DNA from: a phage
Strand: one strand, 5' to 3'
Length of the DNA stretch: 64,000 nt
Sequence record: PZ338878.1
This document shows, one piece after another, positions 37,829-57,491 of this stretch (position 1 is the first letter of the stretch; every line of letters starts with the position of its first letter). Under the pieces are notes generated by a model. That model was not told the origin of the DNA and ran no database searches. It was given only the letters and a program-made list of their open reading frames with translations. A program made the position numbers and the translations under genes.

Positions 37829-38294
37829 TTTAACTACAATCAAGGTGTCTGATCTACCTGTAACAACATCTGTTTCAGACACAGATTATTTTGTAACAGA
37901 TCAATCAGGCATCACTAAGAAAACATCATTACGTGTTCTTCTTGCGGGTGCTGGTGTTACACGAAATCGTCTTTCTGCAAGGGGTACTGTTACAAATACC
38001 CTAGCTTTAGATATTAGCACGGCAGAGTATTTCTCTGCCACTTTATCTAGTCCAACTTGCAGTATTTCATTTAGTAATGTTCCAGTTACAACTAACATTG
38101 TTCAAAACTTTACTCTATCCCTACGTCAAGGCAGTGGAGCAAATAAAGTAACGTGGCCTCAATCTGTTAAATGGAGTTTTGGTCGCGCTCCTGTTTTGAG
38201 TTATAAACAGGGAGCTACAGATATTTTTGAATTTGTTAGTTATGATAATGGAGCTACCTGGATAGGTAGTTTAGTGATGGCAGGAGTGATTTAA
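37821..38294 (+). CDS. baseplate structural protein (putative)
   Basis: ORF overlapping neighbours by a few nt. Confidence 0.35.
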   Translation: MADLTTIKVSDLPVTTSVSDTDYFVTDQSGITKKTSLRVLLAGAGVTRNRLSARGTVTNTLALDISTAEYFSATLSSPTCSISFSNVPVTTNIVQNFTLSLRQGSGANKVTWPQSVKWSFGRAPVLSYKQGATDIFEFVSYDNGATWIGSLVMAGVI

Positions 38295-41170
38295 TGTCAA
38301 GAATTAAGCACAGAATTGACAATGTTTTTCAACTGATCGATGGACATATTCAGTTCTTAGATCGTAATACAGGTTTAACTGTAGATCCTACAGTGCAACA
38401 CTATGTATTAAACCCACAAAACGTTCTAGCTAATAACAGACACTTTATAAACTGGACTGCTCAAGAAGGGCAACCAAACGGGGATGCTACAACAGAAGGT
38501 CAATCCGTGCTTGTTCTTGGTTGCGCTTATGCATACCTAGCTTCCGGCGATACAAAGTATTTAGACTCTGCTAAAAAATATTGGCAAGCCTATATAGATT
38601 ACTTCTTTGGTGGTCAACCTATCCCAGATCCGCCAGCAAAATATCGCCCTAACTGGATTATTAACGGTAAAGAACCACGTCTTGCACACTATCCTCTTAC
38701 AGATGATGGCTACCCTACACACGGAGGTTTTAAGGGTAGCTTAATGACGTGGACTAACGGTAGAACAGTTATTCCTCATGGTGCTCCACATTGGGGAGAA
38801 TACCTTGATAAAGCATGGTTTGCTTTTAATGGTAATCTAGGATGGAACTCTGTAAACGCTACAGTATATGCTGTTAATGCAGATGGAACAACAGATTGGT
38901 CTAAGAATGGAGATCAGTGGGACGTTGATTGGATCATTGATCGTCTAGGACGTAAAGTTGATTGGGATGGAAATATCTTAGAAGAAGGTTTTCCAACATC
39001 TCAATACGGAACAGTTCAACTAAAAAATACTTCTGTCAACGGTACATATAAATTTAACTACGCGACTTGTAACCCTGTTGAACACGGCGGTTATTTAATG
39101 GAGCGTAACACTATGTGGCATAACAGACCAGTTAACGTTCCGGTAGAAATGGGCTTTCAGGATAATGCGTCAGATGCCGAAACTTGGTGGTGTGATGCTA
39201 ATTACCTGATGTACCAAATTACAGGAGAAAGAAAATATTGGCTATGCTGGCAGTCTTCACTGTTAGTGTGTCAAGATTACTCAAACATTGATATGTTTGA
39301 TAAATTCTTCCGTAAATCTACATATGCAACTATTCCGTTTACAGATGGCATCTCTTACGATTATTCGTATCCATCTACAGCAATACCTAAATATTCAAGA
39401 GATACTTTAGGTTATATTGTTATTAGACAAGATGTTGCTGCTCAAACAACATTAGAACAGCAAGCCATTTGGTTTAAAGTTGATCAGAACTCTAAGTTAC
39501 GAGTTCAGTTCCAAGGTGTAGATGACGTAGGACATGGTATCCTTTTCCGTCCAGAATTGGAGCTAAGTAAGACCAAAGATGAAAATAACACAGTAACTTA
39601 CCGTTGTGGTTTACCACTAGGTACAGCTAATATGACAAGCATGGATATTCCATTATCCAGCTTTATGAGAAGTACCCCTCCGAATGGTGGAACATATATT
39701 ATCGCAGACCCGCGAATTATTGTTGACTGGGGTGACAATACTGTGGTACAATATAAGTATGTAACAGGTATTGCTGGAACTAATAATGACCAGATTGTTA
39801 CTGCATCAATGGATACGGATGGTGGTATCACTGTTGGTTTTTGGTTAACTCCTACATCAAAAGCTAATGTTAAGTCTATCACATATAGAACATATGAAGA
39901 TGACTTTAACATGACTATCACGGATGCTCAAGGTTGGAGATGGTGGGCTATGCTGCCTAAAACGCAAGGGGCATGGAGTACGAAGACTTTATCAGCCTCT
40001 GCTTTTAAGTTAAGTGCTTATCAGCCTAATCATCCAGAAACAGATCCTAAACCTTCAGCAATAAATCTTACTGCGGTAGATCAGGTAAATTTAGTTCTGG
40101 ATACGGCTCCTGTCAATGGTTTAACAGGAACAATAGATTTCTATTGTATTAACGATGTACCTGAAAGATATTCATCATCTTCTGGTGATGATTATACCAT
40201 GTACTTCCGTATCACTGTACAGGCTTCAAGTTCTCATACTGCTAAGTTAGGTGATTGTACTATTATTGACTATAAGTTAAATAGTCTTAATTACACACCA
40301 GGAATAATTCCATTCTCTAATATCAGTGACCCAAACACTGCATTATACGATGGATGGCGTGGTATTCCATACCCAGGATACCAGTATCCTTCCTTATACT
40401 GTTTCGCAGGTAGGGATATTGATTGGACACGTTTAAACAACAGTATTGATTTCTTGTATGATGCTCAAATGTGGTTTTATAACACGTTTGATCCTGTGAT
40501 GCCTGGGCCTATGGCACAAGCATATGTGTGGGATCGTTGGGATGCAAGAAAATACGGTGAACCGAATACGTTCACAATGAAACACTGGAATGAAAAAGCG
40601 TGGGATGGTTATGAAGCTCGTGCATTCTACTGTGCTTGTCATGCTGTATACGAACTTGTACAAAGAGGAGAAACACCTCCTGAAAAACTGGTAACAGTTT
40701 GTAAAAATTGGATCAACTACCTTAAATGGTTCCAAGACAATAATGATGGAAGAACACCAACTATCTTTAACCCAGATGGTACAGTTCTTGCACCTATAGA
40801 TGACTTTACTAGTCATATGTCTGCACTGTTTATGGCTGGTTGTTCAATCATGGGTTTGGCAGGTTATGATTCACAAATTCCAAACATTGGTATTGTAGCA
40901 GACAGATGTTTTGATCTGATTCAGCAAAACTATATTGTGCTTTCCCCTAACCATCCGATGAATGGTTGTTGGAGTGTTGCACCGCGTCCAGATTCAGATA
41001 ACGGAATGTTCTTTGGTTTCCATGCTGGAGAACTACTACGTGGTTTTGGTTTATATGCTTTATATCGTAAACTAAATCCTCAAAACGCCTTACCAATTTT
41101 GGACAATAGTAACATACCGACACTAACTGTTCTAACTATGAATGATATTAGTGTTGATGTAACCAAATAA
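38294..41170 (+). CDS. large tail-associated protein with glycoside-hydrolase-like helical domains (candidate depolymerase)
   Basis: 958 aa; Trp/Tyr/Asp-rich segments reminiscent of (alpha/alpha)-barrel carbohydrate enzymes; no motif confirmed. Confidence 0.35.
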   Translation: MSRIKHRIDNVFQLIDGHIQFLDRNTGLTVDPTVQHYVLNPQNVLANNRHFINWTAQEGQPNGDATTEGQSVLVLGCAYAYLASGDTKYLDSAKKYWQAYIDYFFGGQPIPDPPAKYRPNWIINGKEPRLAHYPLTDDGYPTHGGFKGSLMTWTNGRTVIPHGAPHWGEYLDKAWFAFNGNLGWNSVNATVYAVNADGTTDWSKNGDQWDVDWIIDRLGRKVDWDGNILEEGFPTSQYGTVQLKNTSVNGTYKFNYATCNPVEHGGYLMERNTMWHNRPVNVPVEMGFQDNASDAETWWCDANYLMYQITGERKYWLCWQSSLLVCQDYSNIDMFDKFFRKSTYATIPFTDGISYDYSYPSTAIPKYSRDTLGYIVIRQDVAAQTTLEQQAIWFKVDQNSKLRVQFQGVDDVGHGILFRPELELSKTKDENNTVTYRCGLPLGTANMTSMDIPLSSFMRSTPPNGGTYIIADPRIIVDWGDNTVVQYKYVTGIAGTNNDQIVTASMDTDGGITVGFWLTPTSKANVKSITYRTYEDDFNMTITDAQGWRWWAMLPKTQGAWSTKTLSASAFKLSAYQPNHPETDPKPSAINLTAVDQVNLVLDTAPVNGLTGTIDFYCINDVPERYSSSSGDDYTMYFRITVQASSSHTAKLGDCTIIDYKLNSLNYTPGIIPFSNISDPNTALYDGWRGIPYPGYQYPSLYCFAGRDIDWTRLNNSIDFLYDAQMWFYNTFDPVMPGPMAQAYVWDRWDARKYGEPNTFTMKHWNEKAWDGYEARAFYCACHAVYELVQRGETPPEKLVTVCKNWINYLKWFQDNNDGRTPTIFNPDGTVLAPIDDFTSHMSALFMAGCSIMGLAGYDSQIPNIGIVADRCFDLIQQNYIVLSPNHPMNGCWSVAPRPDSDNGMFFGFHAGELLRGFGLYALYRKLNPQNALPILDNSNIPTLTVLTMNDISVDVTK

Positions 41171-41178
41171 GGAAAATA

Positions 41179-43338
41179 ATGAAACAGGCTATTTTTACTG
41201 TAACTCGAAATACGAGAGTAAATGCCAGTTCATTCAGCTATAAGACCGTCGATGGAACGGCGGTCGCTGGTAGAGATTATGTAGCTAAACAGGGAACAGT
41301 AACGTTCCCTTCTGATGCAGATTCTGCTACTGTGGTGGTTGATGTATATGAACGTCCGGCAAACTCTTTAGATCTTTATTTTACTCTTGAGATTACTAGC
41401 ATAAGTCAAAATAACATGATGATCAATGAAGAAATTCGTTGTGTTATTACGACTAATCAATCGAATACAACCCCGCTAACTTGGCCTGTTGTGAAGTCTA
41501 GAATGTTTGATCCTAAGTTTTGGACAATAGATTCTCAAGCAACAGAAAGTTGTTCTATTATCTCTAATGGTGATTCTTTCACAGCAAGAATGGTTAATAG
41601 GACAGTGGCTGGTCTTGCTGGGATTATTTGGTCAACTTACGATAAATATGATCACAAAGGATTAGGCTACCAAGAACATTCTGACTTAAGTAAAGAGAAA
41701 CTTTGGTTTAAAATGGAACTTAGTCAAGGTGTTCCTGGATTAAAAGAAGAAAAATTAATACCATCCTTAACAGTGACACTGAAGGATGAAACAGTTCATT
41801 ATGTATCTCTAAACTTTTATGCAGAAGAAGTTTCAGAAGATGGTAAGACAGCAACAATCAAATTAGATTTCTCAAACTTAAAATCGGGGCCAGAAAATGA
41901 TATTGTTGTTGACACTACACAAATAGATAATATGTTCTTCTCCTTGATCTCAACGAGGTATCAAGAAATTGAAGATATTATTCCTGTAGACAATGAGGAT
42001 CTTTCCTTTAAGTTTACCATACTGGAGCCTGATACTGGTTACAGTATGATGAATATGGGTAATTTAAATGTTCCAGCACACACCATAAGAATGTGTACAT
42101 CTTATGATGATATGTATAACCTGACCCCAGAGCGAATTATTTCTAACACCTACAGATTAGGTTATAGGGATATGATTAACCACTATAATGGTATGTCACA
42201 CTATTATCAGTTTAGTTGGGATGCTGGTTCTAATAAATGGGCTTTGAATAGAACAGAATATTTAAACCCAGCAACAGAAGCATGGTTTGATAATTTCCAC
42301 GCTAATGCAAAAGCTATGGGCTACACAGTAATGAATTCCTTAAGTTTTGAACTTATGAGTACAGTGTGTCCTGTAGAATGGGTACAACATACTTGGAATG
42401 ATGATCTTGCTGCTACAGGTTATGAGCCACCAAGTTATGTTTTATCTCCTTCAATTGATGAAGGGATGAATTATTTACAAGGTGTAATAAATAAAATAGC
42501 TTCTATATCCGCTGCTAATGATCTTCCGGTTATTATTCAGGTTGGTGAACCGTGGTGGTGGTATAACACAGCTACCAATCTACCGTGTATTTATGATTAT
42601 ACAACCAAAGTTGCATTTAATAATGAAACTGGATTGTATGCACAAGATGTTGGTACAGTTAAAAATTATAAAACTGGTACACCATATAATGAATATTATG
42701 CATTCCTATCTAAAACATTAGGACTGCGTGTTGCTAAATTTGCAACAGATACCAGATTAGCATATCCTGGAGCTAAAGTTACATTGTTACCATTTGTGCC
42801 ATCCATTTTGGGTAATGGTATGATGGAGTTTGTTAACTTCCCTAAAGATTATTATATCCCAGAGAACTTTGACTTTTATTGTTCAGAATGTTATGACTGG
42901 TTGTTGGAAGGTAAGATGGAAAAATCTTTCGACGCTATCACAATACCTAATGAGCAACTAGGTTTTAGTTACGATAAGATACATTATCTTGCAGGGTTTG
43001 TTCCAGACGCAACTCTAGCACCATTATATGGCTTTGATCCTGAATCAGACTACAGAACATATTTGTGGAAAATGATTATAGGTAATATTGTATTGAATGA
43101 TCAGAAGTTTGTTGGTTTATATCAATACATATGGGCTTACCCACAAATAATGCATGATTCAATAACTGTTCTTAATTCAAAATCCCAAGTGTTTTATATG
43201 GGTAATGTGCCTTTGAATTGCTACTTGCAAGATATCACTCTTAAACAGGTAAATGTTGAGATTGCCACTATAAGTGGAATTACATTAGCCACTAAATCTG
43301 GAGAAGATTTAGTAACAACACAAAAATTTTATATATAG
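41179..43338 (+). CDS. tail-associated protein with N-terminal Calx-beta-like domain
   Basis: KTVDGTAVAGRDYVAKQGTVTFPSDADSATVVVDV resembles the Calx-beta motif. Confidence 0.4.
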   Translation: MKQAIFTVTRNTRVNASSFSYKTVDGTAVAGRDYVAKQGTVTFPSDADSATVVVDVYERPANSLDLYFTLEITSISQNNMMINEEIRCVITTNQSNTTPLTWPVVKSRMFDPKFWTIDSQATESCSIISNGDSFTARMVNRTVAGLAGIIWSTYDKYDHKGLGYQEHSDLSKEKLWFKMELSQGVPGLKEEKLIPSLTVTLKDETVHYVSLNFYAEEVSEDGKTATIKLDFSNLKSGPENDIVVDTTQIDNMFFSLISTRYQEIEDIIPVDNEDLSFKFTILEPDTGYSMMNMGNLNVPAHTIRMCTSYDDMYNLTPERIISNTYRLGYRDMINHYNGMSHYYQFSWDAGSNKWALNRTEYLNPATEAWFDNFHANAKAMGYTVMNSLSFELMSTVCPVEWVQHTWNDDLAATGYEPPSYVLSPSIDEGMNYLQGVINKIASISAANDLPVIIQVGEPWWWYNTATNLPCIYDYTTKVAFNNETGLYAQDVGTVKNYKTGTPYNEYYAFLSKTLGLRVAKFATDTRLAYPGAKVTLLPFVPSILGNGMMEFVNFPKDYYIPENFDFYCSECYDWLLEGKMEKSFDAITIPNEQLGFSYDKIHYLAGFVPDATLAPLYGFDPESDYRTYLWKMIIGNIVLNDQKFVGLYQYIWAYPQIMHDSITVLNSKSQVFYMGNVPLNCYLQDITLKQVNVEIATISGITLATKSGEDLVTTQKFYI

Positions 43339-43346: not shown

Positions 43347-45662
43347 ATGTCAACTACAATTACTAATTTACCCGAAACATCAAAAGTTAATGGTTCTGAT
43401 TACCTGGTTTTAGACCAACCTGATAAGACTGTTAAAAGCACAGTTTCCAACTTTCTTACTAACACTGGGGTGGTTGCTGCGGGGAGTTATACACCTAGAA
43501 CATTAGCCGATAGATTTGCTGATGTATTTAACGTTAAAGACTTTGGTGCAATTGGTGATGGAGTTACCGATGATACAGCAGCACTGCAAGCAGCAATAGG
43601 CGCAGCAGCAACTTCTGGTGTAAAACTGATATGGCCTGCTGGTACTTACTTGTTCACCAAACTTAGTAGCACTATTAGATATGGAGCATACAATTGGGAG
43701 GCAATAGGTCACGTAGAGCTTATCAGCACAGCTAACCCTGTCGGTGAAGCAGGTCAGGCTATACTACTAAGCGGAGCTTATAGTTCAGATCTGCTAAGTT
43801 TCGAGGAATATGATGTTAAGAAAGGTGATAGATCTATTACCTTAAATAAGGTACTTGATGCATCTACAAAAGACCTCATCGTGATTCGTAATAAGCACGT
43901 TGTACGAGGTGATCATCGTGGTAGCTGGCAAGAAGGTCAAATATCAGGTATTACAAAAGTAGAAGGAAATACCATTATGTTAGACCAGAATGCGCAGTAT
44001 TACTATAGGTCTGGTGGTAACTTCCATTTCACAGTTACTGGTGCGGAAAGTGGACGCAAGTTTTCTGCTGCTGAGTTTTCTGTTACCAACCCGCCACGTG
44101 ATGCATTATATCGTATCACAGGAACAACCGGTGTTAATGCTGGTATAACAAAGGTTGTAACAGCATATGATGATGCAACTAAGACCTTCACCATAGGTTC
44201 TGATGCAAACACAGGGTTCCCTAATACACCAGCAGTTGGTGATCAGTTCTTACTAGATAGGAAAGCAGAGGCTTGGTTGGTATACCCAGCAACTGTACAC
44301 ATTTCTGGTGACTTCGTACTTAAGACACAGCGTGGCCTTATTACAGATGCAGAAAAAGGTTCTCTCGCATGGGATGGACTTGTTCTAAGATATTGCCGTG
44401 ACAGCAAGATACAACTTGGTGGTGTACACAATTTCCCTAACTCAGGTGTTACAGTGAATATGTCATTGCGTGTTCATGTCAATGTAAGTAATATTACTGG
44501 GGCTAACAGGGTGTGGGATGGGTCAGGAGGCTCTGGTAATGCGGTATCCATTAACACCAGTAGCTTCTGCATAGTAGAAGGTCTGTCTTCGACAGGTTGC
44601 CGAAGGGGTGTAGATGTCACCGGTAGTAACTGGTCTAGTTTCTATAACATGATTAAAGACATCTCTGTGAGAGGGGGTGGCGTAGGTTTCACAGGTCAAT
44701 CTATCTTCCCACAGATAGGGTCTGCTGCTGATTGCTATGGAGTGGGCAGTCATGGCGGAGCTGTAGGTACAATGTATGATGGATGTGATTTAGTGGATTG
44801 CACTATACCATTTACCATACGTGGTTTTGATGAGAGTATTCAGAATAGTACAATTCGTGGGTATTGCTCTCAGCCAATTCGCCTGTATTACGCAAGCGGG
44901 TGCTACATTAACAATGTTACATACTCTGACGGTTTCACAGAAACTAAAGGGAGCACTAGCGAGTGGCAGACGATTACAACGACAGAGTACCGTAAGTTAC
45001 GACCAATTAGTTTCTTGACTATCACAGATACTTGGTCTTTTGAAACACCAACTGTAGTGGAGAATTGTGTTGCCAAATCTATTACTCGCTCTTTTGCTTA
45101 TGTAACAACAAAGGAAGAACAGCTAGATAACTTGGTACTTAAGGGTTGTATAGCTTATGTGGATAACTATGGCGCATCTACCACTGATGCAGCTTTCTTG
45201 CAAGTGATTGGTACTCCAGAGTTCCTAGGTAATATAGGTATGTTTGGTGGATGTGATCTTATTTTAGTTGGTTCAAACAACACAGTAAGCTCAAGTCAAA
45301 TGGTGAGAATTGCCTCCGCTTGTACTGGTATCATCCGCAGAAGTGAGACATTGTGGGAAGTAAGGATTAATTCAGGAGAGCAGAAGCGTGTGCCTCTTTC
45401 GAAAACATCTTCTATGCTTCTTGTAGATGTAGCTAACATGGGCAACCCAGGTAACTATAGTGCTTGCAATGTAATCATGGGTAAGGACGATGCAACCGAT
45501 TACTCGCCACTAAGCTCCTTCAACAAGAATAAGGTAGAGTTGCGAGATACTGGAGGGGCAACTGCCGGCACTCTTGCCTTATGGTTTTCTGGTAACAAGC
45601 TAGGAATAACTAATGGTTTCGGAGGAAAAGCTAATATACTTATAGATATTAGATCGTTCTAA
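43347..45662 (+). CDS. tailspike with pectate-lyase-like right-handed beta-helix domain (candidate depolymerase)
   Basis: N-terminal particle-binding segment then DFGAIGDGVTDDTAALQAAI (pectate lyase superfamily signature). Confidence 0.55.
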   Translation: MSTTITNLPETSKVNGSDYLVLDQPDKTVKSTVSNFLTNTGVVAAGSYTPRTLADRFADVFNVKDFGAIGDGVTDDTAALQAAIGAAATSGVKLIWPAGTYLFTKLSSTIRYGAYNWEAIGHVELISTANPVGEAGQAILLSGAYSSDLLSFEEYDVKKGDRSITLNKVLDASTKDLIVIRNKHVVRGDHRGSWQEGQISGITKVEGNTIMLDQNAQYYYRSGGNFHFTVTGAESGRKFSAAEFSVTNPPRDALYRITGTTGVNAGITKVVTAYDDATKTFTIGSDANTGFPNTPAVGDQFLLDRKAEAWLVYPATVHISGDFVLKTQRGLITDAEKGSLAWDGLVLRYCRDSKIQLGGVHNFPNSGVTVNMSLRVHVNVSNITGANRVWDGSGGSGNAVSINTSSFCIVEGLSSTGCRRGVDVTGSNWSSFYNMIKDISVRGGGVGFTGQSIFPQIGSAADCYGVGSHGGAVGTMYDGCDLVDCTIPFTIRGFDESIQNSTIRGYCSQPIRLYYASGCYINNVTYSDGFTETKGSTSEWQTITTTEYRKLRPISFLTITDTWSFETPTVVENCVAKSITRSFAYVTTKEEQLDNLVLKGCIAYVDNYGASTTDAAFLQVIGTPEFLGNIGMFGGCDLILVGSNNTVSSSQMVRIASACTGIIRRSETLWEVRINSGEQKRVPLSKTSSMLLVDVANMGNPGNYSACNVIMGKDDATDYSPLSSFNKNKVELRDTGGATAGTLALWFSGNKLGITNGFGGKANILIDIRSF

Positions 45663-45753
45663 TGCCACTAATCAAATCAGTTAAGCAAAGTGCTGTACGC
45701 CAGAACACACAAGAGGTTATTCAGTCAGGACGTGACACTAAACAGGTTATAAG

Positions 45754-45773
45754 ACCCCTCTTCGGAGGGGTTT
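45754..45773 (+). terminator. hairpin terminator after tailspike gene
   Basis: ACCCCTC-TTCG-GAGGGGT then TT. Confidence 0.45.
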
Positions 45774-45796: not shown

Positions 45797-45946
45797 ATGA
45801 ACGAATTATTCTACCAAGGCGGTATTGCCCCAGGTACTACTGCCATTAGTCTTAGTGCTGCTGTACTTGTGCATTCAGCGGGTTCTGTAGACCTTGGGGA
45901 ATTAGCTGTATCTTGTGATTTAAAAAGTAATGAGAACGCACCATGA
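45797..45946 (+). CDS. small hydrophobic protein (49 aa, below ORF-track cutoff)
   Basis: AAAGAGG RBS; stop overlaps next start (ATGA). Confidence 0.3.
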   Translation: MNELFYQGGIAPGTTAISLSAAVLVHSAGSVDLGELAVSCDLKSNENAP

Positions 45947-46188
45947 GAAAATTTTTAATAGGTATGTTTTGTACATATCCTGATAATAAAGTCAGTTCTA
46001 CTAAAGTTTGGAATGCTATTGGTATGATTGTTATGTCCAGTATGTTTATTTATTTGGGAATTGATAAAGAAATTCCTGAATGGATGGGCTGGGCTTTTGT
46101 TTTTATGATCACACCATCCAGACTAATGAAGAATTTAATAGATTTACGTTGGGGCAGATCACCTGCCCCTGATAAGGAGGATAACTAA
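45943..46188 (+). CDS. small membrane protein with charged C-terminus (holin-like topology)
   Basis: Two or three hydrophobic segments then RLMKNLIDLRWGRSPAPDKEDN. Confidence 0.35.
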   Translation: MRKFLIGMFCTYPDNKVSSTKVWNAIGMIVMSSMFIYLGIDKEIPEWMGWAFVFMITPSRLMKNLIDLRWGRSPAPDKEDN

Positions 46189-47675: not shown

Positions 47676-47677
47676 AA

Positions 47678-48320: not shown

Positions 48321-49301
48321 ATGGCAAAGCCACAATACTACCCTGACTGGGCGACACAAACAGTAACCCTCCCAGGAACGGGAAACACAAACAAGATTAG
48401 ACCAAAAGAAACCATCCGTAATGTTGGTATGGATTTTGGTCAGATTATGACTTGTGAAGAAATGAACTGGATCTTGAACAATATTGGGTCTTGGATTCGC
48501 TATATGCAAGATGAATTCTTCCCAACATTGCCTACTACATATCTTCCTATAGTCGGTACTAAAATTACAATGGCAGGTGATGCTACAGGTGAAGTTACAT
48601 GGAATGGTAATGCTGCTGTAACATTATCTATTCAAGTCGTAGATAATAGTCATAATCACTTATCAGCTAACATTACAGACGCAACATCAAACCAAGTTGT
48701 AGGAAATGTCCTTGTTAAGCGTGATAATGGTGGTGCTATCTATGCAGGTGATATTTACACTTGTGGTACAGGTGCTACAGATCCTGCAACATTATTTTTT
48801 AGAAACTATAACGGACAAACAGTAGGCAATATGTCTTCTGAACCAGGTGCAGGTGGTCAACTCTATATTTATAGAATAAATCCATCTACTGGAGGAACAT
48901 CTTGTGGAGTCCGTTTGTATGATGCAGGTTATGTTTTAATAGACAACCCTCGTTCTAATTCTGGTCAAGATACTGGTAATGGTAATGCTCTTGTAAGATT
49001 AGATTATCTTAACTCAAGACTAAACTCATTGCAAAGTACACTGCAAAATAATATTAACAACGTTAATAGCAACTTGCAAGGCCAAATTAATAACATTAAC
49101 AATAGAGTTTCTTCTGTTGTGTCTTCTATCCGTCTAGGTACACGTATTAAAGCTGGTGTATCTGAATCTCCTTTCTATGCTGGTCACGTGATCACAGGCT
49201 GGGGTTTTGGTGATAAGAAAGAACTTCGTGGTGCTTGGTATTGGTCTGCTCCGCTACAATATTACATTAATGGTAGGTGGATAACAGTAACCAACGTTTA
49301 G
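48321..49301 (+). CDS. tail fibre protein
   Basis: Asn/Gln/Ser-rich coiled-coil shaft (LNSRLNSLQSTLQNNINNVNSNLQGQINNINNRVSS) and Gly-rich beta segments. Confidence 0.45.
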   Translation: MAKPQYYPDWATQTVTLPGTGNTNKIRPKETIRNVGMDFGQIMTCEEMNWILNNIGSWIRYMQDEFFPTLPTTYLPIVGTKITMAGDATGEVTWNGNAAVTLSIQVVDNSHNHLSANITDATSNQVVGNVLVKRDNGGAIYAGDIYTCGTGATDPATLFFRNYNGQTVGNMSSEPGAGGQLYIYRINPSTGGTSCGVRLYDAGYVLIDNPRSNSGQDTGNGNALVRLDYLNSRLNSLQSTLQNNINNVNSNLQGQINNINNRVSSVVSSIRLGTRIKAGVSESPFYAGHVITGWGFGDKKELRGAWYWSAPLQYYINGRWITVTNV

Positions 49302-49313
49302 TAAGGAGAACAC

Positions 49314-49865
49314 ATGAAAAAAGATGTTATTTACACTGGCTTTGAACTATATCAACCAGAATTGACAGAAGAAAATGTCATCTATCTTTCAATAGGTGCT
49401 GGTTTTCTTAAAGATAAAGATGGTAATGATTGGTACGAAATTCAGAAATATTTATCCAAAAATTACCCTGATGCCTATTTCTTAACTCTAGATCACAATA
49501 ATGTAGTTGTTGCAGCTACGAAAGATGTTTCTACATATTTTCCCGCTGGTCTTACTGTTCTTGTAACATACAATGTTCCAGATAAAATAGAAGAAGAAAG
49601 CAACCTAGGATCGTGGAGATATGACAATGGTAAGTTTATTTCTCATAATGGGTTTGCAATAGAAGATGCCAACCTTAAAATGGAAAAAGAATTAACTTGG
49701 GCCACAAATCAAATATCTGCAATTCAAGATTTAGAGGAATTACAAGGTTTATCTGAAGAACAAAAAGATTGGTTAGGAAAAGTTAAACTATATCGTGCAA
49801 CACTGATTCAAATTAACGTTGAAGATGCACCTAATATAACTTGGCCTACAAGACCTAAGAAATAG
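49314..49865 (+). CDS. tail fibre assembly/chaperone protein (putative)
   Basis: 183 aa ORF directly after the fibre gene. Confidence 0.35.
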   Translation: MKKDVIYTGFELYQPELTEENVIYLSIGAGFLKDKDGNDWYEIQKYLSKNYPDAYFLTLDHNNVVVAATKDVSTYFPAGLTVLVTYNVPDKIEEESNLGSWRYDNGKFISHNGFAIEDANLKMEKELTWATNQISAIQDLEELQGLSEEQKDWLGKVKLYRATLIQINVEDAPNITWPTRPKK

Positions 49866-49874: not shown

Positions 49875-50216
49875 ATGGAGCTAACAGAAGTATGGGATAT
49901 CGCTAAAGAGGCGATTATCCCTCTTATTGGTGTAATCTGGGTGGTCTTCAAACAGAAGATAGATGATATAGCAAGTGATTTGGATAAAATGGAAGACAAA
50001 TACCGTGAACTAGAAAAGAAGTTGGTGTTTGTTGAATCCACTTATGCTACCAAAGCAGAACTTGCTCAAATGCTTAACCAGATCAACTCTACATTAATGG
50101 CAAATAATACTGCCTTAGAACAGAAGATTGAAAAAATAATGGATTTAAAAAATGCTCCTGTTCAATTAATGCTAGAGGAGATTACGAAGCGCACACAAAG
50201 TAAGGACAAAAATTAA
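49875..50216 (+). CDS. hypothetical protein with N-terminal hydrophobic segment and coiled coil
   Basis: IIPLIGVIWVVF then heptad-like charged sequence. Confidence 0.35.
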   Translation: MELTEVWDIAKEAIIPLIGVIWVVFKQKIDDIASDLDKMEDKYRELEKKLVFVESTYATKAELAQMLNQINSTLMANNTALEQKIEKIMDLKNAPVQLMLEEITKRTQSKDKN

Positions 50217-52630
50217 TGGCGAATTTTCCAACATATCCTGCTACGACACTAGAACAAGGTGTTGATCTGGTTATATTCTCGTCTAACCAGATGCATGATG
50301 TTATTAACGGGGATGCTACAGCAACTGTAGAAACCGAAACAGGTTTAATACCTACACTGCGTAAAGCACTTGTTGATAACTTCTTCTTTAAGAGTCCTGT
50401 TGCTTGGTCAGCAGGATCAACTGAAACTGTATTTAACCAGTTACGTTATTTTGAAAACGGTATCTTGAGTGGGTACTACTATGCTCCATCTGCCACTACT
50501 GCGAACCCTGTACCTATGCAGGGTACACCTGTAGGAGACAGTAACTGGACTCTGTATGCTCTTAAAACTGAACAGTTAGCTTCAGATGTGTATCCTTGGT
50601 ATTTTAAAGGTGCTACAGGGTATGAGACAGAAATCAGTCCTCCTTATATCTTTGATAATGCTATTGTCACCATTAACGGTGTAATTCAGATTCAGGGTGA
50701 AGCATTTACTATCAAAGATAGTAAAATTATTCTGGCAGAACCATTAGGTTTAGATCCGTCTACTGGTCTACCTAACAAATTGTTTGCTTTTATTGGTAAA
50801 ACAACAGCCTCTACTTCTTACGTAGAGAAAAACCTTTTGTCATCTACCACTGGTGCAGCAATGGTTGGTCTTCCATCTGGAGGCAATCTGTTACAAGCTC
50901 AATACTTTGTAACGCCTGAGCAGTTTGGTGCAATTGGTGATGGAGTTACCGATGATACTCAAGCAATTCTAAAAACCATTACTTTCGCTAACACGAATAA
51001 CATTCAAGTACGTGCAGATAAGAATTATAGATTCACAAGCTCAATTGCTATGTCTGGTATTCGTTGGTATGGTGGTACATTCACTGGTAACGGTGGAACA
51101 ATGATTTCTACTGTGTCCTGTTGGATTGAAAACGTTCGCTTTGAAAAATGTTATGTTAAGATGTTAGGTGGTGATTGCCGATTCTATCGTAATATCTTCT
51201 CCAACGCAACATCTACAGCAGCATTTTTAATGCAAGCAATGACAAGTGAAGGTACGTTGGACTTCAGTTACAACGAAATGTATGGTTGTAAATATGCGAT
51301 CCTGCAACAAGGTACTGGAGAAGTAATGACCTATGGGCGTTACTCTAACAACTACATTCACGATATCAAAGGTGATGCTATTGAACTTAACGTAGTTCAA
51401 AAACACTACACTGAAGGTTTGATCATCGAGAATAACCACATTGCTAACGTAGATGCTTCTGGACAAGGGGCAAACTGGGGTATTGGTATTGGTGTAGCAG
51501 GTAGTGGCCCATATGGTGTTGATGCTCCTGATTCACAATATGTACGTAACTTCAGTATCGTTGGAAATAGGGTTTACAATTGCCGTCAATGTTTACACGT
51601 TGAAATGGGTAAAAACTTCACTATACGTGACAACGAAGTTTATCCTAACACAGCAGTTTCAACAGGTACAGGTTTAACTACTTGTGGTGTTGCATTATAC
51701 GGATGCCAAGATTTTGAAGTTGATGGTTTAACTGGTTATCTGCTTAATGATCCGTCTGTTTCAACACGCATGGTCTTTATTGACTGGGGTGTTAACAGTG
51801 GAAGATATGCGGGGCCACCAATTAACTTTACAATTAAGAATTTGGATATTCCAGAATCTTCAATTGAAATTGCAACGGCTGGATCAGATGCCTGGGAAAA
51901 CTCTACAATTGTTAGTAACATCAATTGTAATGTTTTTAAATGGCGTGGATTACCATCTAGCTCTACCTTTAATAATATTCGTTGCCGTAGTATTGACTTT
52001 ATTGGTCAACACGGAAGCGGAGAAGGAAGTGGTGGCGGTTTCTATACTCGCAGCCAATTCACTTATATGAAGTGGGTAGGATGTACAGCACTTAGCGGAG
52101 ATGAAACAACAGTTTCTTTTGCTAAAATCTACACGGATCGTTGCGATCAGGTTGGAAATAACTTTGGTGTTCCAACTGCTGTTGATGGTACAGGTCATCG
52201 TGGGCCAGTCTTAACCACTATTTCTGAACAATATTTTACAGATTATGATGAATTCCCAGGTGGGCGTGACTTCCCTACTGGAACAGTTATTCATTGTGCA
52301 AGCGGTAAAAAACACGTTGTTACAGTAGGTGGTGCTTTCTTTAGTAATAATGAGAAAATAAAAGCAACTGTTACAGGTCAAACCTATCTACAGTCTAATG
52401 CTTTAAACTGGGCTAGTAATGGCTACGCTAAAGCGGCAGGTACTAAGATTGTTATTCCAGGTGCAGGAGCAAATGGTGGCGATCTTGTGACAACTATAGC
52501 ACGTGCTACGTATGTGACAAATAGTTTGTACACAATAGATATTGCAGATCCAATTGTAACACCTACAGCAGAGAATACACAAATTAAAGCTCTGAACCCT
52601 GTTACTTTTGTTACTGTCAATAATGCTTAA
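50216..52630 (+). CDS. second tailspike with pectate-lyase-like beta-helix domain (candidate depolymerase)
   Basis: QFGAIGDGVTDDTQAIL signature; shares a 35-nt identical DNA stretch with gene 43347. Confidence 0.55.
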   Translation: MANFPTYPATTLEQGVDLVIFSSNQMHDVINGDATATVETETGLIPTLRKALVDNFFFKSPVAWSAGSTETVFNQLRYFENGILSGYYYAPSATTANPVPMQGTPVGDSNWTLYALKTEQLASDVYPWYFKGATGYETEISPPYIFDNAIVTINGVIQIQGEAFTIKDSKIILAEPLGLDPSTGLPNKLFAFIGKTTASTSYVEKNLLSSTTGAAMVGLPSGGNLLQAQYFVTPEQFGAIGDGVTDDTQAILKTITFANTNNIQVRADKNYRFTSSIAMSGIRWYGGTFTGNGGTMISTVSCWIENVRFEKCYVKMLGGDCRFYRNIFSNATSTAAFLMQAMTSEGTLDFSYNEMYGCKYAILQQGTGEVMTYGRYSNNYIHDIKGDAIELNVVQKHYTEGLIIENNHIANVDASGQGANWGIGIGVAGSGPYGVDAPDSQYVRNFSIVGNRVYNCRQCLHVEMGKNFTIRDNEVYPNTAVSTGTGLTTCGVALYGCQDFEVDGLTGYLLNDPSVSTRMVFIDWGVNSGRYAGPPINFTIKNLDIPESSIEIATAGSDAWENSTIVSNINCNVFKWRGLPSSSTFNNIRCRSIDFIGQHGSGEGSGGGFYTRSQFTYMKWVGCTALSGDETTVSFAKIYTDRCDQVGNNFGVPTAVDGTGHRGPVLTTISEQYFTDYDEFPGGRDFPTGTVIHCASGKKHVVTVGGAFFSNNEKIKATVTGQTYLQSNALNWASNGYAKAAGTKIVIPGAGANGGDLVTTIARATYVTNSLYTIDIADPIVTPTAENTQIKALNPVTFVTVNNA

Positions 52631-52632: not shown

Positions 52633-52653
52633 AAAAGGGGCGAAAGCCCCTTT
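52633..52653 (+). terminator. rho-independent terminator
   Basis: AAAAGGGGC-GAAA-GCCCCTTT. Confidence 0.5.
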
Positions 52654-52670: not shown

Positions 52671-54632
52671 GTGATTTTAACACGTCCAAATAGTGCCATT
52701 GCAGACATGGTAGAGTCTCGCTATAGAAAGCGTAGAAGTTTTGCAAGTGGTTTTACCTTAAGAGATGCTCGTGAAGCATTGCTCTTTGAAGCTGACGGTA
52801 ACTACTATCAGTGGAAAGGTTCTCTACCTAAAGTTGTACCTGCTAACTCTACTCCTACATCTACTGGAGGGATTTCAGATACAGCTTGGAAAAATGTGGG
52901 TAATGCAGATGACATTGCTCAAATAGAATCAGAATTAGATGCTATTGAAGCTGAAATTGAAGATCTTAGAGAATCCATCCCAGAAGCTGGTAAATCAGCT
53001 TACCAGATTGCCGTAGACAATGGTTTCCAAGGTACTGAGACACAGTGGTTGGCTTCTTTAAAAGGTGATCCAGGTGCTCCATTAAAGCTATTAGGGACAC
53101 TATCTAATACCAACCAATTACCTACAAGTGGAAACAATGCAGGGGATGCATGGATTGTAGGCGAGAATATGTATGCTTGGGATGGTACTGCTTGGAGAAA
53201 AGTAAACTCACAGGGGCCAGAAGGTAAATCTGCTTATGAAGTATGGCTTGCAGCAGGAAATGAAGGTACAGAACTAGATTATCTTGCTTCAATTAAAGGT
53301 GATAAAGGGGAGCCTGGCCCAGAGGGGCCACAAGGTGTGCCAGGTAATAATGCTAATGGTTTTGATTACCAAGGCGCAGCTAATTCCGTTTCAGATCTTC
53401 CTTCTGCATCTCATGGAAACACATCTCAAGCATGGAGTGTTGGTACATATCTATACGTGTCAAACGGTGTAGAATGGATCAATATGGGTGCTATAGTGGG
53501 GCCAAAAGGAGATAAAGGCGACAAAGGTGATAAGGGTAACACTGGTGATTCAGCTTATCAAGTCTGGTTAAATGCTGGTAACGTTGGTACTATTGACGAA
53601 TATATTGCCTCTCTGAAAGGAGAAAAAGGTGATAAGGGAGACAAGGGTGATCAAGGTGCACAGGGTATACAAGGCTTGACGGGGCCAACTGGTGCAGGGT
53701 TGACCATTATTGACATTCTGACTAACACTTCTGAACTACCACAAACTGGAGAAGAGGGTGATGGTTATCTGATCAATAATGAACTTTGGGTCTGGTTGCA
53801 AGGAGCCACAGAGTGGACAAATGTTGGTCGTTTAGCTGGTACTCCAATCACTGCAAAAGGACACGTTGCGTCTGCAAGTGCACTTCCTCCTACAGCTAAT
53901 TACGGTGATGCTTATCTGACGGAAGATACAGGTCATCTTTACATTTACACCTATGATGAACAAACTCAAACTGCTGAATATGTAGATATGGGTAGTTTGA
54001 AAGGTGATAAGGGTGAAAAAGGTGACGCTGGTACTAACGGTACAGACGGTGCAACTTGGATTGTTAAAACAACAGATCCAATCTCTAGTGATGGTAAACA
54101 AGGTGATTATGCCTTTAATATCTCCACGGGCGAGGTGTTCTTAAAAACATCTGCAACTGTCTGGACTTCTCAAGGTACACTACCTAGTATCACAGATGCA
54201 CCTAGTGACGGTAAGACTTATGCTCGTAAAGATGGGGCATGGGAAGAACTCACTAATTCTGTAGATGGTCAAGATATAGTTCCAACAAAAGTAACAACTA
54301 ATTTTATAGAGGTTACAGCATATACCAACAATTCTGTTACAGGGGACTGGACACCTCCAGGAACACATAACATGAATGTGTTGAATCTTACTGGTAACGC
54401 TACTATAAAAGCATGGCCTGGTGTCGAAGATAGTACAAAACCTAAACCATTCTCTGCAATAGTTTATCTTATCCAAGATGCCACTGGAGGTCGTACTGTT
54501 ACTTTAGATCCATCTTACAAAGTAATTGGTTCCAGTGATATTAATACAGATCCTAACGGAGTAACAATACTACAACTAACATATTGTGGTGTTGGCGATT
54601 ACGTGGATGCTATTGTTGCTAAACGCACATAA
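52671..54632 (+). CDS. tail fibre with collagen-like Gly-X-Y tracts and phage-tail-repeat motifs
   Basis: GDKGEPGPEGPQGVPG, GPKGDKGDKGDKGNTGD, GEKGDKGDKGDQGAQGIQGLTGPTGAG; three SAYQ..W...G..GT...Y.AS.KG repeats; GTG start. Confidence 0.55.
   Translation: MILTRPNSAIADMVESRYRKRRSFASGFTLRDAREALLFEADGNYYQWKGSLPKVVPANSTPTSTGGISDTAWKNVGNADDIAQIESELDAIEAEIEDLRESIPEAGKSAYQIAVDNGFQGTETQWLASLKGDPGAPLKLLGTLSNTNQLPTSGNNAGDAWIVGENMYAWDGTAWRKVNSQGPEGKSAYEVWLAAGNEGTELDYLASIKGDKGEPGPEGPQGVPGNNANGFDYQGAANSVSDLPSASHGNTSQAWSVGTYLYVSNGVEWINMGAIVGPKGDKGDKGDKGNTGDSAYQVWLNAGNVGTIDEYIASLKGEKGDKGDKGDQGAQGIQGLTGPTGAGLTIIDILTNTSELPQTGEEGDGYLINNELWVWLQGATEWTNVGRLAGTPITAKGHVASASALPPTANYGDAYLTEDTGHLYIYTYDEQTQTAEYVDMGSLKGDKGEKGDAGTNGTDGATWIVKTTDPISSDGKQGDYAFNISTGEVFLKTSATVWTSQGTLPSITDAPSDGKTYARKDGAWEELTNSVDGQDIVPTKVTTNFIEVTAYTNNSVTGDWTPPGTHNMNVLNLTGNATIKAWPGVEDSTKPKPFSAIVYLIQDATGGRTVTLDPSYKVIGSSDINTDPNGVTILQLTYCGVGDYVDAIVAKRT
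52989..53696 (+). repeat. intragenic repeats (three roughly 30-aa units plus collagen-like triplets)
   Basis: Repeat units at aa 107-136, 185-214 and 291-320 of gene 52671; Gly-X-Y runs at aa 209-226, 277-293, 316-342. Confidence 0.5.
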
Positions 54633-54635
54633 TCA

Positions 54636-54660: not shown

Positions 54661-54671
54661 AAGGAGATTAA

Positions 54672-57491
54672 ATGTATCCTATTCCTTTATTTATGTCAAC
54701 AACATCAGCTTCAGTAGTAACAGCTACATCTATAACCACTTCCTCTATTGGTATTGCAATAGTTGGTAGTAAAAAGCAACTGACATACACAGTTTCACCG
54801 GAAGATGGTGCGTTATTTGATATAGCTTTTTCATCTTCAGATAATACCAAAATGGTTATAGATAATAATGGTATGATGGAGTTTGTTGCCGAAGGTGGTT
54901 TTGATGCAATAATGACAGCTAAAAATAATTTAGGTGCTGTCTTAACTGATCAATCTGGTGGCTATGCTTCAGAATTAAGTGTGTACACTGAAAGTCTGTC
55001 TGCTATGGATGCAGGAACTACTCAACAATTGGTTGCTACAATCAGTCCAGAAGGTGCTAAAGACCTTCCAGACATGGTAATTACGTACACCACAACAGAT
55101 CCAGAAGTAGCTACTGTAAGTCCTACAGGATTAATAACTGCTCTTAAAGATGGCAGTTGCCGTATAGGTTGCACTGCAACTTATCAAGGAACAGTGGTGG
55201 CCTCTGATAGTTCTTATTTAGGTGTTAATGCTGTTCCTGTTATTTCTAATGTAACAGCCGTGGCAAACAGCTATGGAGACATTCGTGTTGCTTGGGATGT
55301 AGCTGATCCGCTAGATGGTGATACTTATACTGTAGAAGTATTAGATTTAAGTAATAACAGTGTCCAGTGGACTACAACAACCACGAATACTTACGCTTAC
55401 TTTGATATCTCTGACTCTATTCCTCTTTATGGGTTTGCTCCAACATACCTTAAAATTAGCGTTAAGAGCACCAAAGCAGCACCCGTTATCTTTAATAACT
55501 CAATAGCTACAGATGATTCATTCATTAAAGAAGTTATTGTCTTTGCTGGACAAGATAACGTAAATGCACACTTTACAGAACTATCTGGTGCAAATAAAGC
55601 AGCAATGAGTAGCACAACAGCCCGTAATGCATATGCTACGCAACGTGGTTTAGCAAATGCTGAAGTTCTCCCGTTAAATACAGCTTCTGGATCATCAGCA
55701 GCAGATAAATATGCTGACGATAAAGCTGGAACAGGTACACCAGACAACTACTGGTATGATCTGGATAACACAGCAGATGGGCCATGCTTAACTAACTTTA
55801 TCACTAAAGTCACACCTTATGCAAGTAAGGTTAAAGCGATTATTTGGGGACAAGGTGAAAATGATGCTGTATCAGCATCTTCAACTGTTGCAGGTAGATA
55901 CAGTAACACTACACGTTACCATGATGCTACGATAGCTATCTTTGATAAGATGCGTACAATAGTTCCTGCTTCTCAAGCAAAAATTGTTTGGCAGATCCTA
56001 GGACGTTCTTATTTATATGGTGTAGAAGTTAATGGTGTGGATTGGCAGAAATACAGAAATGTACAAAGAACCATCTCTACAGCACGTGACGATGTTATCA
56101 TTGGTTCTTGGGTGGATGGTGCTGAACGCTACAGTGGTTATGTTTATGAAGAAGGTATTGCTGGTCGTATCCATTATATTTCTTCTGTATACCAAACAGC
56201 AGCTACAAAACTTGCTAAATCAGCAGCAGACGGTACAGACCTAACATCAACGTCACCTGTTTGGGTTGATATGGCTGTTCCAACTGGAGCAACAGCTATT
56301 TCCCAATCTAATCAAGATATAATTTTAGCATGGGATGCTCAAGGTTATAGTAAACACTACTTCCGTAATATTAACGTCTTAACAGCATCTGTATTAACTG
56401 AACAAACCCTTAATACGAACAGTTATACGTTTACCTATGCAGATCAAGTAGAACAATATGGTTTTGCAGCAGGTACTACGGTATTTGATGTTGCATATTA
56501 TGACGAAGCAAATGATGTGTTATCTCCTTTAGTACGTTTTAATGTTAGCGTTACAGCAGGAAAAGTAGAAGATAAACCTGTCGTGATGGATTATGATTTG
56601 ACACAAGAAACTCTTCCATCAGATGTTAAGGTTAATGGTGGGAACTCTTTTGCTCGTGCTTCTGGAGATAAACTTGTAGCCACTAACACCTTGGTTGCTC
56701 CGTTGGAGTATGTTGGTACTACCCCTGTAGGTAGACGTGTAACAGCTAACACAGCTACACAAATTTTTGTCAACAACGCCTTAACAAGCGCAAGCCCGTG
56801 GGTAAAGACCAACTTAACTGTTGCAGCTTCATCTGATAACTCTCCGGCTGGAACTACTGCTAATGTATTCAAATTAACTCCGACTACAACCTCTGGTAGT
56901 CATATCTTAACTGCAACATATACTAACGCGTACAACATATCTGCCGGACGTAACTGGTCTGCCTCTGTTTTCTTGAAAGCGAACGGGATTACTAAGGCCA
57001 AACTAAGATTAAAAGCAGGAACTGAAGTTAATGAGGGTACTTTTGATTTAGCAGCAGGTACATTCGCAGGAAGTGAAGCTAATATTATATCTATGGGCAA
57101 CGGTTGGTATCGTGCTATTCTGCATAAAACAGGGATAGCCAAACAGTCCTCCATAAGTTTTGAAATAATTGCCTTGGATGCAACTGGTGCGGAGATTTTC
57201 GCTGGAGATGGTACTAGTAACCTTGCAGTTTGGTTGCCACAGCTTGAAGGTGCTTCTACAGGAGACACATCAAAAGCTGGATCGCCTTATGTCTGCACAT
57301 ATCCTGGAAATTTAGGAGGAGTATCCTTCACTATACCAAGGAACGGACATACTGGTGTGGATGTTTACTATTCCAACGGAGACGTTGTTCGTGACGTATT
57401 CTCTGGTACGGCATCTACTTGGACAATAAACTACTCCAGCTTGTACGATTGGGGATCAGTCTTTATTACAGGTTTGAAATATTACGACTAA
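54672..57491 (+). CDS. tail protein with Ig-like segments and a SASA/SGNH-type carbohydrate esterase-like domain
   Basis: VIVFAGQDNVNAHF (GQxN block) and IWGQGENDA (QGExD block) resemble sialate O-acetylesterase motifs, with Asp in place of the usual Ser. Confidence 0.45.
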   Translation: MYPIPLFMSTTSASVVTATSITTSSIGIAIVGSKKQLTYTVSPEDGALFDIAFSSSDNTKMVIDNNGMMEFVAEGGFDAIMTAKNNLGAVLTDQSGGYASELSVYTESLSAMDAGTTQQLVATISPEGAKDLPDMVITYTTTDPEVATVSPTGLITALKDGSCRIGCTATYQGTVVASDSSYLGVNAVPVISNVTAVANSYGDIRVAWDVADPLDGDTYTVEVLDLSNNSVQWTTTTTNTYAYFDISDSIPLYGFAPTYLKISVKSTKAAPVIFNNSIATDDSFIKEVIVFAGQDNVNAHFTELSGANKAAMSSTTARNAYATQRGLANAEVLPLNTASGSSAADKYADDKAGTGTPDNYWYDLDNTADGPCLTNFITKVTPYASKVKAIIWGQGENDAVSASSTVAGRYSNTTRYHDATIAIFDKMRTIVPASQAKIVWQILGRSYLYGVEVNGVDWQKYRNVQRTISTARDDVIIGSWVDGAERYSGYVYEEGIAGRIHYISSVYQTAATKLAKSAADGTDLTSTSPVWVDMAVPTGATAISQSNQDIILAWDAQGYSKHYFRNINVLTASVLTEQTLNTNSYTFTYADQVEQYGFAAGTTVFDVAYYDEANDVLSPLVRFNVSVTAGKVEDKPVVMDYDLTQETLPSDVKVNGGNSFARASGDKLVATNTLVAPLEYVGTTPVGRRVTANTATQIFVNNALTSASPWVKTNLTVAASSDNSPAGTTANVFKLTPTTTSGSHILTATYTNAYNISAGRNWSASVFLKANGITKAKLRLKAGTEVNEGTFDLAAGTFAGSEANIISMGNGWYRAILHKTGIAKQSSISFEIIALDATGAEIFAGDGTSNLAVWLPQLEGASTGDTSKAGSPYVCTYPGNLGGVSFTIPRNGHTGVDVYYSNGDVVRDVFSGTASTWTINYSSLYDWGSVFITGLKYYD

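Follow-up and report, generated by a model that had tools for sequence, protein, structure and literature searches.

Introduction

The multivalent adsorption apparatus of phage phi92 was reportedly described first by Schwarzer et al. in 2012 (J Virol 86:10384), and the concept of multivalent adsorption is said to originate there. The concept has since been taken up again in the BASEL papers, the Eryne announcement, the BME3 paper and a 2026 cryo-electron microscopy (cryo-EM) paper on phi92. Of the phi92 tailspikes, gp143 has been proven to be an endosialidase, and the structure of the colanidase gp150 has been solved. The locus has been dubbed a 'Swiss army knife', its tailspikes being expressed together (PMC11984140; PMC8594841). 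Here we analyze the equivalent locus in 64,000 nucleotides of phage DNA (sequence record PZ338878.1; ‘the window’ below is this whole stretch). An initial annotation, made from the sequence, had described positions 38294-57491 as an unusually large region for several receptor-binding and depolymerase proteins, and had read it as a branched adsorption apparatus able to recognize or degrade several surface polysaccharides.

Cryo-EM of phi92 shows three sets of fibres on each of six baseplate wedges, with the wedges containing heterotrimers (PMC13450770). In that work gp143 is placed at the tip of fibre I, an 'arm-like scaffold' carries the endosialidase, fibre III is gp147, and gp140 is named as a fibre-like candidate (PMC13450770). 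The short fibre and its chaperone are homologous to GpS and GpU of phage Mu (PMC8594841). Phi92-like phages need the NGR glycan, as does phage N4 (PMC8669472; PMC11984140), and both 'encode homologous glycan deacetylase tailspikes' (PMC8669472). Finally, receptor-binding domains have been found to be swapped between conserved motifs in phages that include Justusliebigvirus, the motif after the domain being terminator-like (Pas et al., 2023; PMC10408124).

Results

The locus is phi92-like, with one replaced tailspike body

Against 50,697 deposited phage records, the 19.2 kb locus showed 97-99% nucleotide identity across 86-89% of the query (megablast). The matched phages were Escherichia phages W22, SD2, vB-Eco-KMB37, alia, PHB05, BME3, PaulScherrer (Bas60) and others. 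The two records that we examined, KMB37 and PaulScherrer, are classified in the Stephanstirmvirinae, genus Justusliebigvirus; these are the phi92-like phages. Gene order is the same as in the annotated loci of these two phages, and gene lengths are identical in 11 of 12 genes. In those annotated loci, genes for the tube initiator, hub, central spike and sheath initiator lie 5’ of the locus, and genes for a Dam-like methylase and a DNA polymerase lie 3’ of it on the opposite strand. The source is a virulent myophage of 145-150 kb and no bacterial locus, and the region is where this Justusliebigvirus (phi92-like) phage of E. coli encodes its baseplate and receptor-binding proteins. It is ordinary for its group except for one allele, that of the tailspike p771, whose body (43476-45754) is found in no deposited phage genome. 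This body is the only new element, everything else in the locus being 97-99% identical to deposited genomes. The whole is very probably best explained as a late-expressed phi92-type baseplate and receptor-binding locus with several fibres or spikes on each platform, in which the body of p771 has been swapped.

The locus forms one co-directional array on the (+) strand, with 12 called open reading frames (ORFs) and one further small ORF, and its bounds at 38294 and 57491 are set by the start codon of the first gene and the stop codon of the last. Six ORFs are large, encoding 958, 719, 771, 804, 653 and 939 amino acids (p958, p719, p771, p804, p653 and p939), and each product has strong phage-tail homologues, just as initially annotated. 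Between p771 and p804 lie ORFs of 49 and 81 amino acids followed by p495, p209, p326, p183 and p113. The first list of tail proteins was therefore right about the six large ones, but it had passed over the wedge genes (46188-48307), the fibre chaperone and three small ORFs. The region is indeed unusually large compared with most phages; for the phi92-like group its size is standard. A branched apparatus for several surface polysaccharides gains support from the near-identical phi92-like phages, which carry the same genes in the same order, and the idea is not new.

The present phage shares with phi92 its genus and the order of hub, spike, sheath initiator, small fibre, large tail proteins, exchangeable tailspike, wedge, short fibre with chaperone, colanidase and collagen-like fibre. 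It differs in two respects: a pectate-lyase-type module occupies the exchangeable slot that holds the gp143 endosialidase in phi92, and the last gene, for the 939-residue protein, is present in most Justusliebigvirus and absent from phi92 (PMC12210895).

The exchangeable slot carries a body absent from the deposited phages

The swapped cassette is defined by two features:

43347..45662, + strand: p771, tailspike in the exchangeable slot (position of the phi92 gp143 endosialidase); PF12708, phrog_14558
45755..45770, + strand: GC-rich hairpin CCCCTCTTCGGAGGGG after p771, the 3’ edge of the swapped cassette; kept in KMB37 and in a sibling contig

p771 is made up of a conserved anchor of 43 amino acids (43347-43475) and a replaced receptor-binding body of beta-helix type. 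Relative to KMB37 and PaulScherrer, DNA homology stops at 43475, 43 codons into the gene, and resumes at 45755 (KMB37) or 45823 (PaulScherrer), at the conserved hairpin. The body between these boundaries (43476-45754) has no counterpart among the deposited phage records; at the protein level (tblastn), deposited phages match only the first ~104 residues of p771, alia doing so at 82% identity.

PF12708 matches p771 with an E-value of 4.8e-12 (46.6 bits against a cut-off of 27), and the match is confined to residues 61-106. Residues 49-767 match the PHROG tailspike family phrog_14558 (E 3.7e-55). When a profile of 11 p771 homologues was compared with solved structures, the Sf6 tailspike, AlgE4 and iota-carrageenase were matched over the first helix turns only. 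A full beta-helix is the fold that we would expect for p771. Of the two pectate-lyase-type beta-helix tailspikes first proposed for the locus, p804 is a beta-helix tailspike and matches 6E0V (E=0; see below), whereas for p771 the PF12708 assignment extends to residues 61-106 only.

The nearest relatives of p771 were sought in a collection of 5.8 billion proteins. P0001 is 96% identical; its gene, flanked by the same genes as here, lies on a contig of a sibling Justusliebigvirus in SRR21291458. That contig carries ~380 additional nucleotides after the stop codon of the tailspike gene and before the conserved hairpin (L003 11166-11634), an insertion that the present phage lacks. Two proteins of 742 amino acids are 89-91% identical to p771, and the one examined sits in a different phage context. 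P0004, the tailspike of a P22-like (Lederbergvirus-type) E. coli prophage, is 60% identical over 93% of the length and has the same PF12708 start; its gene occupies the tailspike position, after gp16 and mnt/arc. It differs in having a P22 head-binding anchor and in belonging to a temperate podovirus.

The 43-residue anchor recurs at 88% identity or more in 70 of the best 120 matches to p771, joined to bodies that fall into at least 54 unrelated groups. By Pfam, endosialidase, GDSL, GDPD, sialidase and several beta-helix types are among these bodies. p771 thus has the conserved N-terminal anchor expected of an exchangeable slot, and, judged by its sequence, it is a case of the exchange of receptor-binding domains on a modular anchor described by Pas et al., 2023. 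The same organization of modular anchor and receptor-binding domain, in which DNA motifs are conserved where swaps take place, is found in CBA120 (Kuttervirus) and G7C (Gamaleyavirus), and these phages also share the PF18668 docking domain that occurs in p653 and in many alleles of the exchangeable slot. They differ in placing two to four tailspikes on each adaptor, whereas here the spikes and fibres would be borne by a six-fold myovirus wedge, along with a Mu-like short fibre.

A 42-nucleotide direct repeat, 93% identical between its copies at 43542-43583 and 50924-50965, encodes FGAIGDGVTDDT at the start of the beta-helix in the p771 and p804 genes. As a candidate for a widespread recombination motif it was rejected at the exact level, an exact 35-mer being present in just two IMG/VR contigs.

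Prophages with P0004 offered a possible route to the glycan that p771 targets. This prophage tailspike is present in four complete E. coli genomes (ECCWS199, LH10-b-1, LS45 and XH992), and O-antigen clusters were located in two of the four. The ECCWS199 lysogen (L009; NZ_CP032237.1 1762001-1792000) has an O86 cluster in which wzy is frameshifted with an internal stop, and the LH10-b-1 lysogen has an O21 cluster. The colanic-acid gene wcaM is also frameshifted in the ECCWS199 lysogen. The other three strains were not among the best 60 of the 80 matches listed for O86 wzx, and a literature search on the names of the strains with P0004 returned nothing beyond an unrelated plasmid table. We rejected this route to a serogroup assignment: because the lysogens carry O86 and O21, no single O-serogroup is transferable to p771, and the same difference would fit a target that is not one O-antigen. 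The receptor-binding proteins of alia and VecB show the same pattern, and targets other than O-antigen have been suggested (PMC10408124).

Further fibres, spikes and wedge components

The remaining features of the locus, and the gene just before it, are as follows:

37821..38294, + strand: p157, small fibre-like protein, just 5’ of the start of the array; ORF call
38294..41170, + strand: p958, conserved tail protein with a glycoside-hydrolase-like barrel; ORF, predicted fold, phi92 gp141 position
41179..43338, + strand: p719, Calx-beta, N4 gp65-type N-domain and N4 gp64/gp65-type TIM barrel; Pfam, PDB
45797-45946, + strand: ORF of 49 amino acids, truncated counterpart of a 101-amino-acid PaulScherrer ORF
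45943-46188, + strand: predicted membrane protein of 81 amino acids; membrane protein or holin in relatives
46188..48307, + strand: baseplate wedge p495 (Baseplate_J-like) and p209; PF04865, phrog_6, phrog_4056
48321..49865, + strand: p326, short tail fibre with a coiled-coil segment, and p183, Caudo_TAP chaperone; phrog_4465, PF02413, phrog_136
49875..50216, + strand: p113, hydrophobic N-terminus and coiled-coil region; sequence
50216..52630, + strand: p804, colanic-acid-degrading beta-helix tailspike, phi92 gp150 orthologue; PDB 6e0v_A
52634-52653: GC-rich hairpin after p804
52671..54632, + strand: p653, collagen-like fibre with a TSP1/Gp66-type N-terminal docking domain; PF18668, PF01391
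54636-54653: GC-rich hairpin after p653
54672..57491, + strand: p939, Big_2, SGNH-esterase-like with FN3-like, and head-spike-fibre-like domains; Pfam, Foldseek, profile
57495-57518: strong bidirectional terminator after p939, common to the convergent gene

p804 is essentially the crystallized gp150 of phi92. Its residues 180-804 match the 6E0V structure (6e0v_A) with E=0 and 1422 bits, its match to the colanic acid degradation family phrog_6117 has an E-value of 2e-270, and it has a WcaM-like region and a C-terminal TSP_Ig-like domain. These are the features of a colanidase tailspike orthologous to gp150, and p804 is the only protein of the locus whose enzymatic activity has an experimentally characterized orthologue behind it; the other ‘enzymes’ are so called at the level of fold or family.

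The collagen-like fibre of the initial annotation is p653. Its residues 11-77 match PF18668 (E 4.2e-21), Collagen PF01391 is found at E 4.7e-8 (33.1 bits against a cut-off of 27.2), phrog_15437 is matched with E=0, and four G-X-Y runs are present (residues 210-227, 277-294, 317-343 and 445-462). The annotated coiled-coil fibre corresponds to p326, a Mu GpS-like short fibre. The region of p326 and p183 matches the tail fibre family phrog_4465 (E 4e-109), PF02413 (E 3.2e-11) and phrog_136 (E 4e-44). For the wedge genes p495 and p209 the matches are PF04865 (E 3.5e-11), the baseplate wedge family phrog_6 (E 2e-46) and the baseplate protein family phrog_4056 (E 1.7e-81).

We assigned phi92 gp numbers to the products from p157 to p653 from gene order and the 2026 phi92 paper. 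On that basis p771 would be gp143, p495 and p209 the wedge proteins gp145 and gp146, which make up the fibre-bearing platform of phi92, p326 gp147, p804 gp150 and p653 gp151, and p157 the positional counterpart of gp140. Relatives annotate p157 as a tail fiber or sialidase-domain protein. The N-termini of p157 and p771 (43347-43475) have a common motif, LP.T..V...DY.V.DQ....K.S, with 37% identity over 38 amino acids (BLASTP, E 8e-5). This common motif suggests that the two proteins may dock at the same kind of site.

Terminator hairpins had been annotated after every large gene; a hairpin is present at four of the six junctions, after p771, p804, p653 and p939, and among these four only that of p939 has a good T-run. 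The gaps between p958 and p719 and between p719 and p771 are 8 nucleotides long and consist of a ribosome-binding site with no stem; their best folds, at -1.2 and -2.0 kcal/mol, are no better than those of shuffled sequences.

Among the small ORFs, those of 49 and 81 amino acids gave no family matches and p113 gave no significant one. The 101-amino-acid PaulScherrer ORF (L002 10982-11287) is annotated 'tailspike protein', and its last ~40 codons alone are conserved in the 49-amino-acid ORF, whose stop codon overlaps the start of the 81-amino-acid membrane-protein gene. Two small proteins with hydrophobic segments, of 81 and 113 amino acids, are thus located inside the array of baseplate and fibre genes. 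Beyond the array, convergent genes at 57527-58646 on the (-) strand end at the bidirectional terminator of p939, and the second of them encodes a Dam-like N6/N4 DNA methylase (PF01555, E 1.9e-30).

Domains shared with phage N4

p719 is the Calx-beta-containing protein of the initial annotation (Calx-beta, E 1.7e-9). Its other Pfam domains are NCTSP_N (PF23844, E 4.6e-21) and TIM-barrel_NCTSP (PF23845, E 1.9e-81), and in the PDB it matches N4 Gp64 (9lc0_M, E 3.4e-27) and the N4 non-contractile sheath protein gp65 (9lc0_I, E 1.8e-11). Its counterparts in related phages are labelled glycan-deacetylase tail fibres.

p939 has an Ig-like Big_2 domain at its N-terminus (E 7e-14) and a head-spike-fibre-like GTA_spike_fiber domain near its C-terminus (E 1.1e-18). 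The structural model of residues 190-630 has a pLDDT of 70-94 in most 10-residue blocks. With this middle region Foldseek recovered the N4 tail (9lc0_I, E 6e-25) and, at probability 1.0, PatB, GDSL esterases, CE2 and a deacetylase; residues ~285-520 have the alpha/beta/alpha fold of SGNH proteins. The SGNH-like and FN3-like middle has its homologue in the central part of N4 gp65 (profile against PDB, E 1.2e-55).

The two proteins together therefore hold the domain set of N4 gp64 and gp65 (PDB 9lc0, 9yf4), with the gp65 N-domain and gp64/gp65 TIM barrel in p719 and the SGNH-like/FN3-like middle of gp65 in p939. In N4 a single protein of 1382 amino acids, the sheath of a short podovirus tail, holds these domains, whereas here they are split over two myovirus baseplate proteins and joined to Calx-beta, Big_2 and head-spike-fibre-like domains. 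Since the two groups of phages both depend on the NGR glycan (nfrA/nfrB/wecB) and p719 and p939 together hold this domain set, they are the obvious candidates for the NGR step. By analogy with N4, p719 is a candidate NGR-glycan module, and the pair most likely handles this conserved glycan.

A conserved protein with a glycoside-hydrolase-like barrel

An AlphaFold2 model of p958, built from 41 diverse homologues, was confident (pLDDT 86.7, pTM 0.83). It shows a discontinuous (alpha/alpha)6 barrel like that of glycoside hydrolases, into which beta-sandwich domains resembling carbohydrate-binding modules (CBMs) are inserted; the inserted domains are similar to CBM11 and CBM22. Identity to the structural matches is 8-12%. 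The 958-residue protein had been described as having glycoside-hydrolase-like helical domains, and in the model this likeness holds at the level of the fold. By sequence, p958 has no Pfam, NCBIfam or PDB match and belongs to no described glycoside hydrolase family. It falls in the large ‘tail protein’ family phrog_2871 and has 310 homologues, and across the 41 diverse ones many of its acidic and aromatic residues are invariant.

At 44-57% identity, p958 has homologues (P0215 among them) on the chromosomes of Enterobacter, E. coli, Pseudomonas, Gluconobacter and marine bacteria. Some are fusions of 1.5-1.6 thousand amino acids with an N4 gp65-type N-domain and TIM barrel, or with PF21722. These fusions to a gp65-type TIM barrel hint that p958 and p719 may act together. 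Because identity stays at 44-57% in distant hosts, p958 would have a conserved role, as a scaffold or in acting on a conserved glycan, rather than one in variable host recognition; by its sequence conservation it appears too conserved across hosts for a depolymerase of variable receptors.

Proposed assembly

Homology, domain and fold content, synteny and swap boundaries are established by these comparisons; virion positions, the glycan targets of all proteins but p804, and any catalytic competence of p958, p719, p771 and p939 are what we infer from them. If the phage is assembled as phi92 is, its wedge proteins p495 and p209 would build six platforms around the baseplate hub, and each platform would bear several different trimeric fibres and spikes simultaneously. 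In the exchangeable slot, p771 would be docked by its conserved 43-residue N-terminal anchor. p804 would degrade colanic acid as a beta-helix tailspike, and p653 may dock via its TSP1/Gp66-type N-domain and so produce branching. The Mu GpS-like p326, folded with its chaperone p183, would make the final contact with the lipopolysaccharide core. p719 and p939, with the gp65 and gp64 domain set, would most likely handle the NGR glycan, and p958 would be a scaffold or act on a conserved glycan. Host range would be retuned by swaps of the p771 body between the anchor and the conserved 3’ hairpin.

Alternative explanations

Several observations weigh against this scheme. The phage is known from sequence alone, and the display of several fibre types on each of its wedges at once is a projection from phi92 that we consider likely to apply. 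In phi92 itself fibre II could not be assigned, the arm of fibre I likewise lacks an assignment, and gp141 and gp142, the counterparts of p958 and p719, are never mentioned in the 2026 paper (PMC13450770). The similarity of p771 to beta-helices reaches, by sequence, the first turns only. The conservation of p958, in hosts as distant as Pseudomonas and marine bacteria, suits a structural role better than that of a host-specific depolymerase. In p939, the position of the SGNH nucleophile is occupied by Asp, and the block I serine is missing.

The last of these points can be followed through the family. Block I reads 'VFAGQDN' in this phage and all close relatives, and 'FAGQSN/H' in the distant homologues P0276, P0277, P0282 and P0284. 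In these distant homologues the domain (residues ~280-530 of p939, window positions 55509-56261) is fused to an N4-type TIM barrel. A third group has 'FAGGDN', and two of its three members have lost the downstream His (RIQY instead of RIHY). In sequence terms, this looks like progressive loss of a catalytic triad in a tail protein. The annotation of p939 as esterase-like accordingly holds for the fold, with the canonical serine nucleophile absent.

These features bear most directly on a less multi-enzymatic apparatus, in which only two or three proteins (p771, p804 and perhaps p719) truly degrade glycans, while p958, p939 and p653 make up the arms of a fibre network as scaffolds, adaptors or lectin-like pseudo-enzymes. 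Besides the Asp of p939 and the absence of the His in some of its relatives, N4 gp65, in the domains that match, also shows degeneration at the SGNH serine position. p958, in no glycoside hydrolase family by sequence, is conserved over very different hosts and sometimes fused to a gp65-type TIM barrel, and the phi92 endosialidase is itself borne by a scaffold (PMC13450770). On the other hand, the many invariant acidic and aromatic residues of p958 could belong to an active site, SGNH proteins with unconventional triads exist (the fold matches of p939 include 9h4u, a deacetylase of tail-fibre type with a 'diluted triad'), and relatives are annotated with glycosidase or deacetylase domains. We regard this explanation as a serious one that is nonetheless not favored. 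A further proposal, more speculative still and to our minds rather doubtful, is that the body of p771 (43476-45662) is an uncharacterized receptor-binding and depolymerase module that has newly entered the exchangeable slot of Justusliebigvirus and whose target may be capsule or a cross-serogroup glycan, and that the SGNH-like part of p939 may behave as a lectin, a pseudo-esterase gripping acetylated NGR glycan and not cleaving it.

It might also be argued that the p771 gene is a recent, non-functional recombinant whose foreign body is incompatible with the anchor, leaving the phage one receptor-binding protein short. The body is joined 43 residues from the start, without the Tail_spike_N domain of many other alleles, and the nearest full-length relative outside the genus has a different anchor, of the P22 head-binding type. 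Yet the ORF is intact at 771 amino acids, and the same junction of anchor and body recurs at 96% identity in an independent sample (SRR21291458) with differences that keep the frame. In alia, moreover, the first 104 residues are 82% identical, so this type of junction is established in the genus. We consider a non-functional p771 very improbable, and retain the reading of a functional swap in a phi92-type locus.

That the cluster is a tailocin (a contractile-tail bacteriocin) or what is left of a defective prophage in some bacterial chromosome, as the p958 homologues in Enterobacter, E. coli and Pseudomonas chromosomes and the prophage location of P0004 might suggest, can be dismissed as exceedingly improbable, since the locus and its immediate flanks match virulent Justusliebigvirus genomes of 145-150 kb, a phage DNA polymerase and a Dam-like methylase flank it, the 64-kb window contains a 16-gene tRNA cluster, and there are no bacterial housekeeping genes among the window ORFs of at least 150 amino acids. 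The tRNA genes are clustered at 15534-18410 (+), 5’ of the structural genes, and include three tRNA-Met(cat), two Leu and two Ser.

Discussion

Multivalent host recognition has its textbook case in the phi92-like phages, where the swapping of tailspike cassettes is also documented, so that this locus adds little to the general picture. No published structure locates the conserved glycoside-hydrolase-like p958, or the N4 gp65-like p719 and p939, in the virion. The points left of interest are the placement of p958, the serine-less SGNH-like domain of p939 and the target of the new p771 module. With its boundaries set by a 43-residue anchor on the 5’ side and a conserved hairpin on the 3’ side, the p771 cassette is a clean natural example of where such swaps occur, and its body is one more receptor-binding module for host-range engineering and depolymerase discovery.

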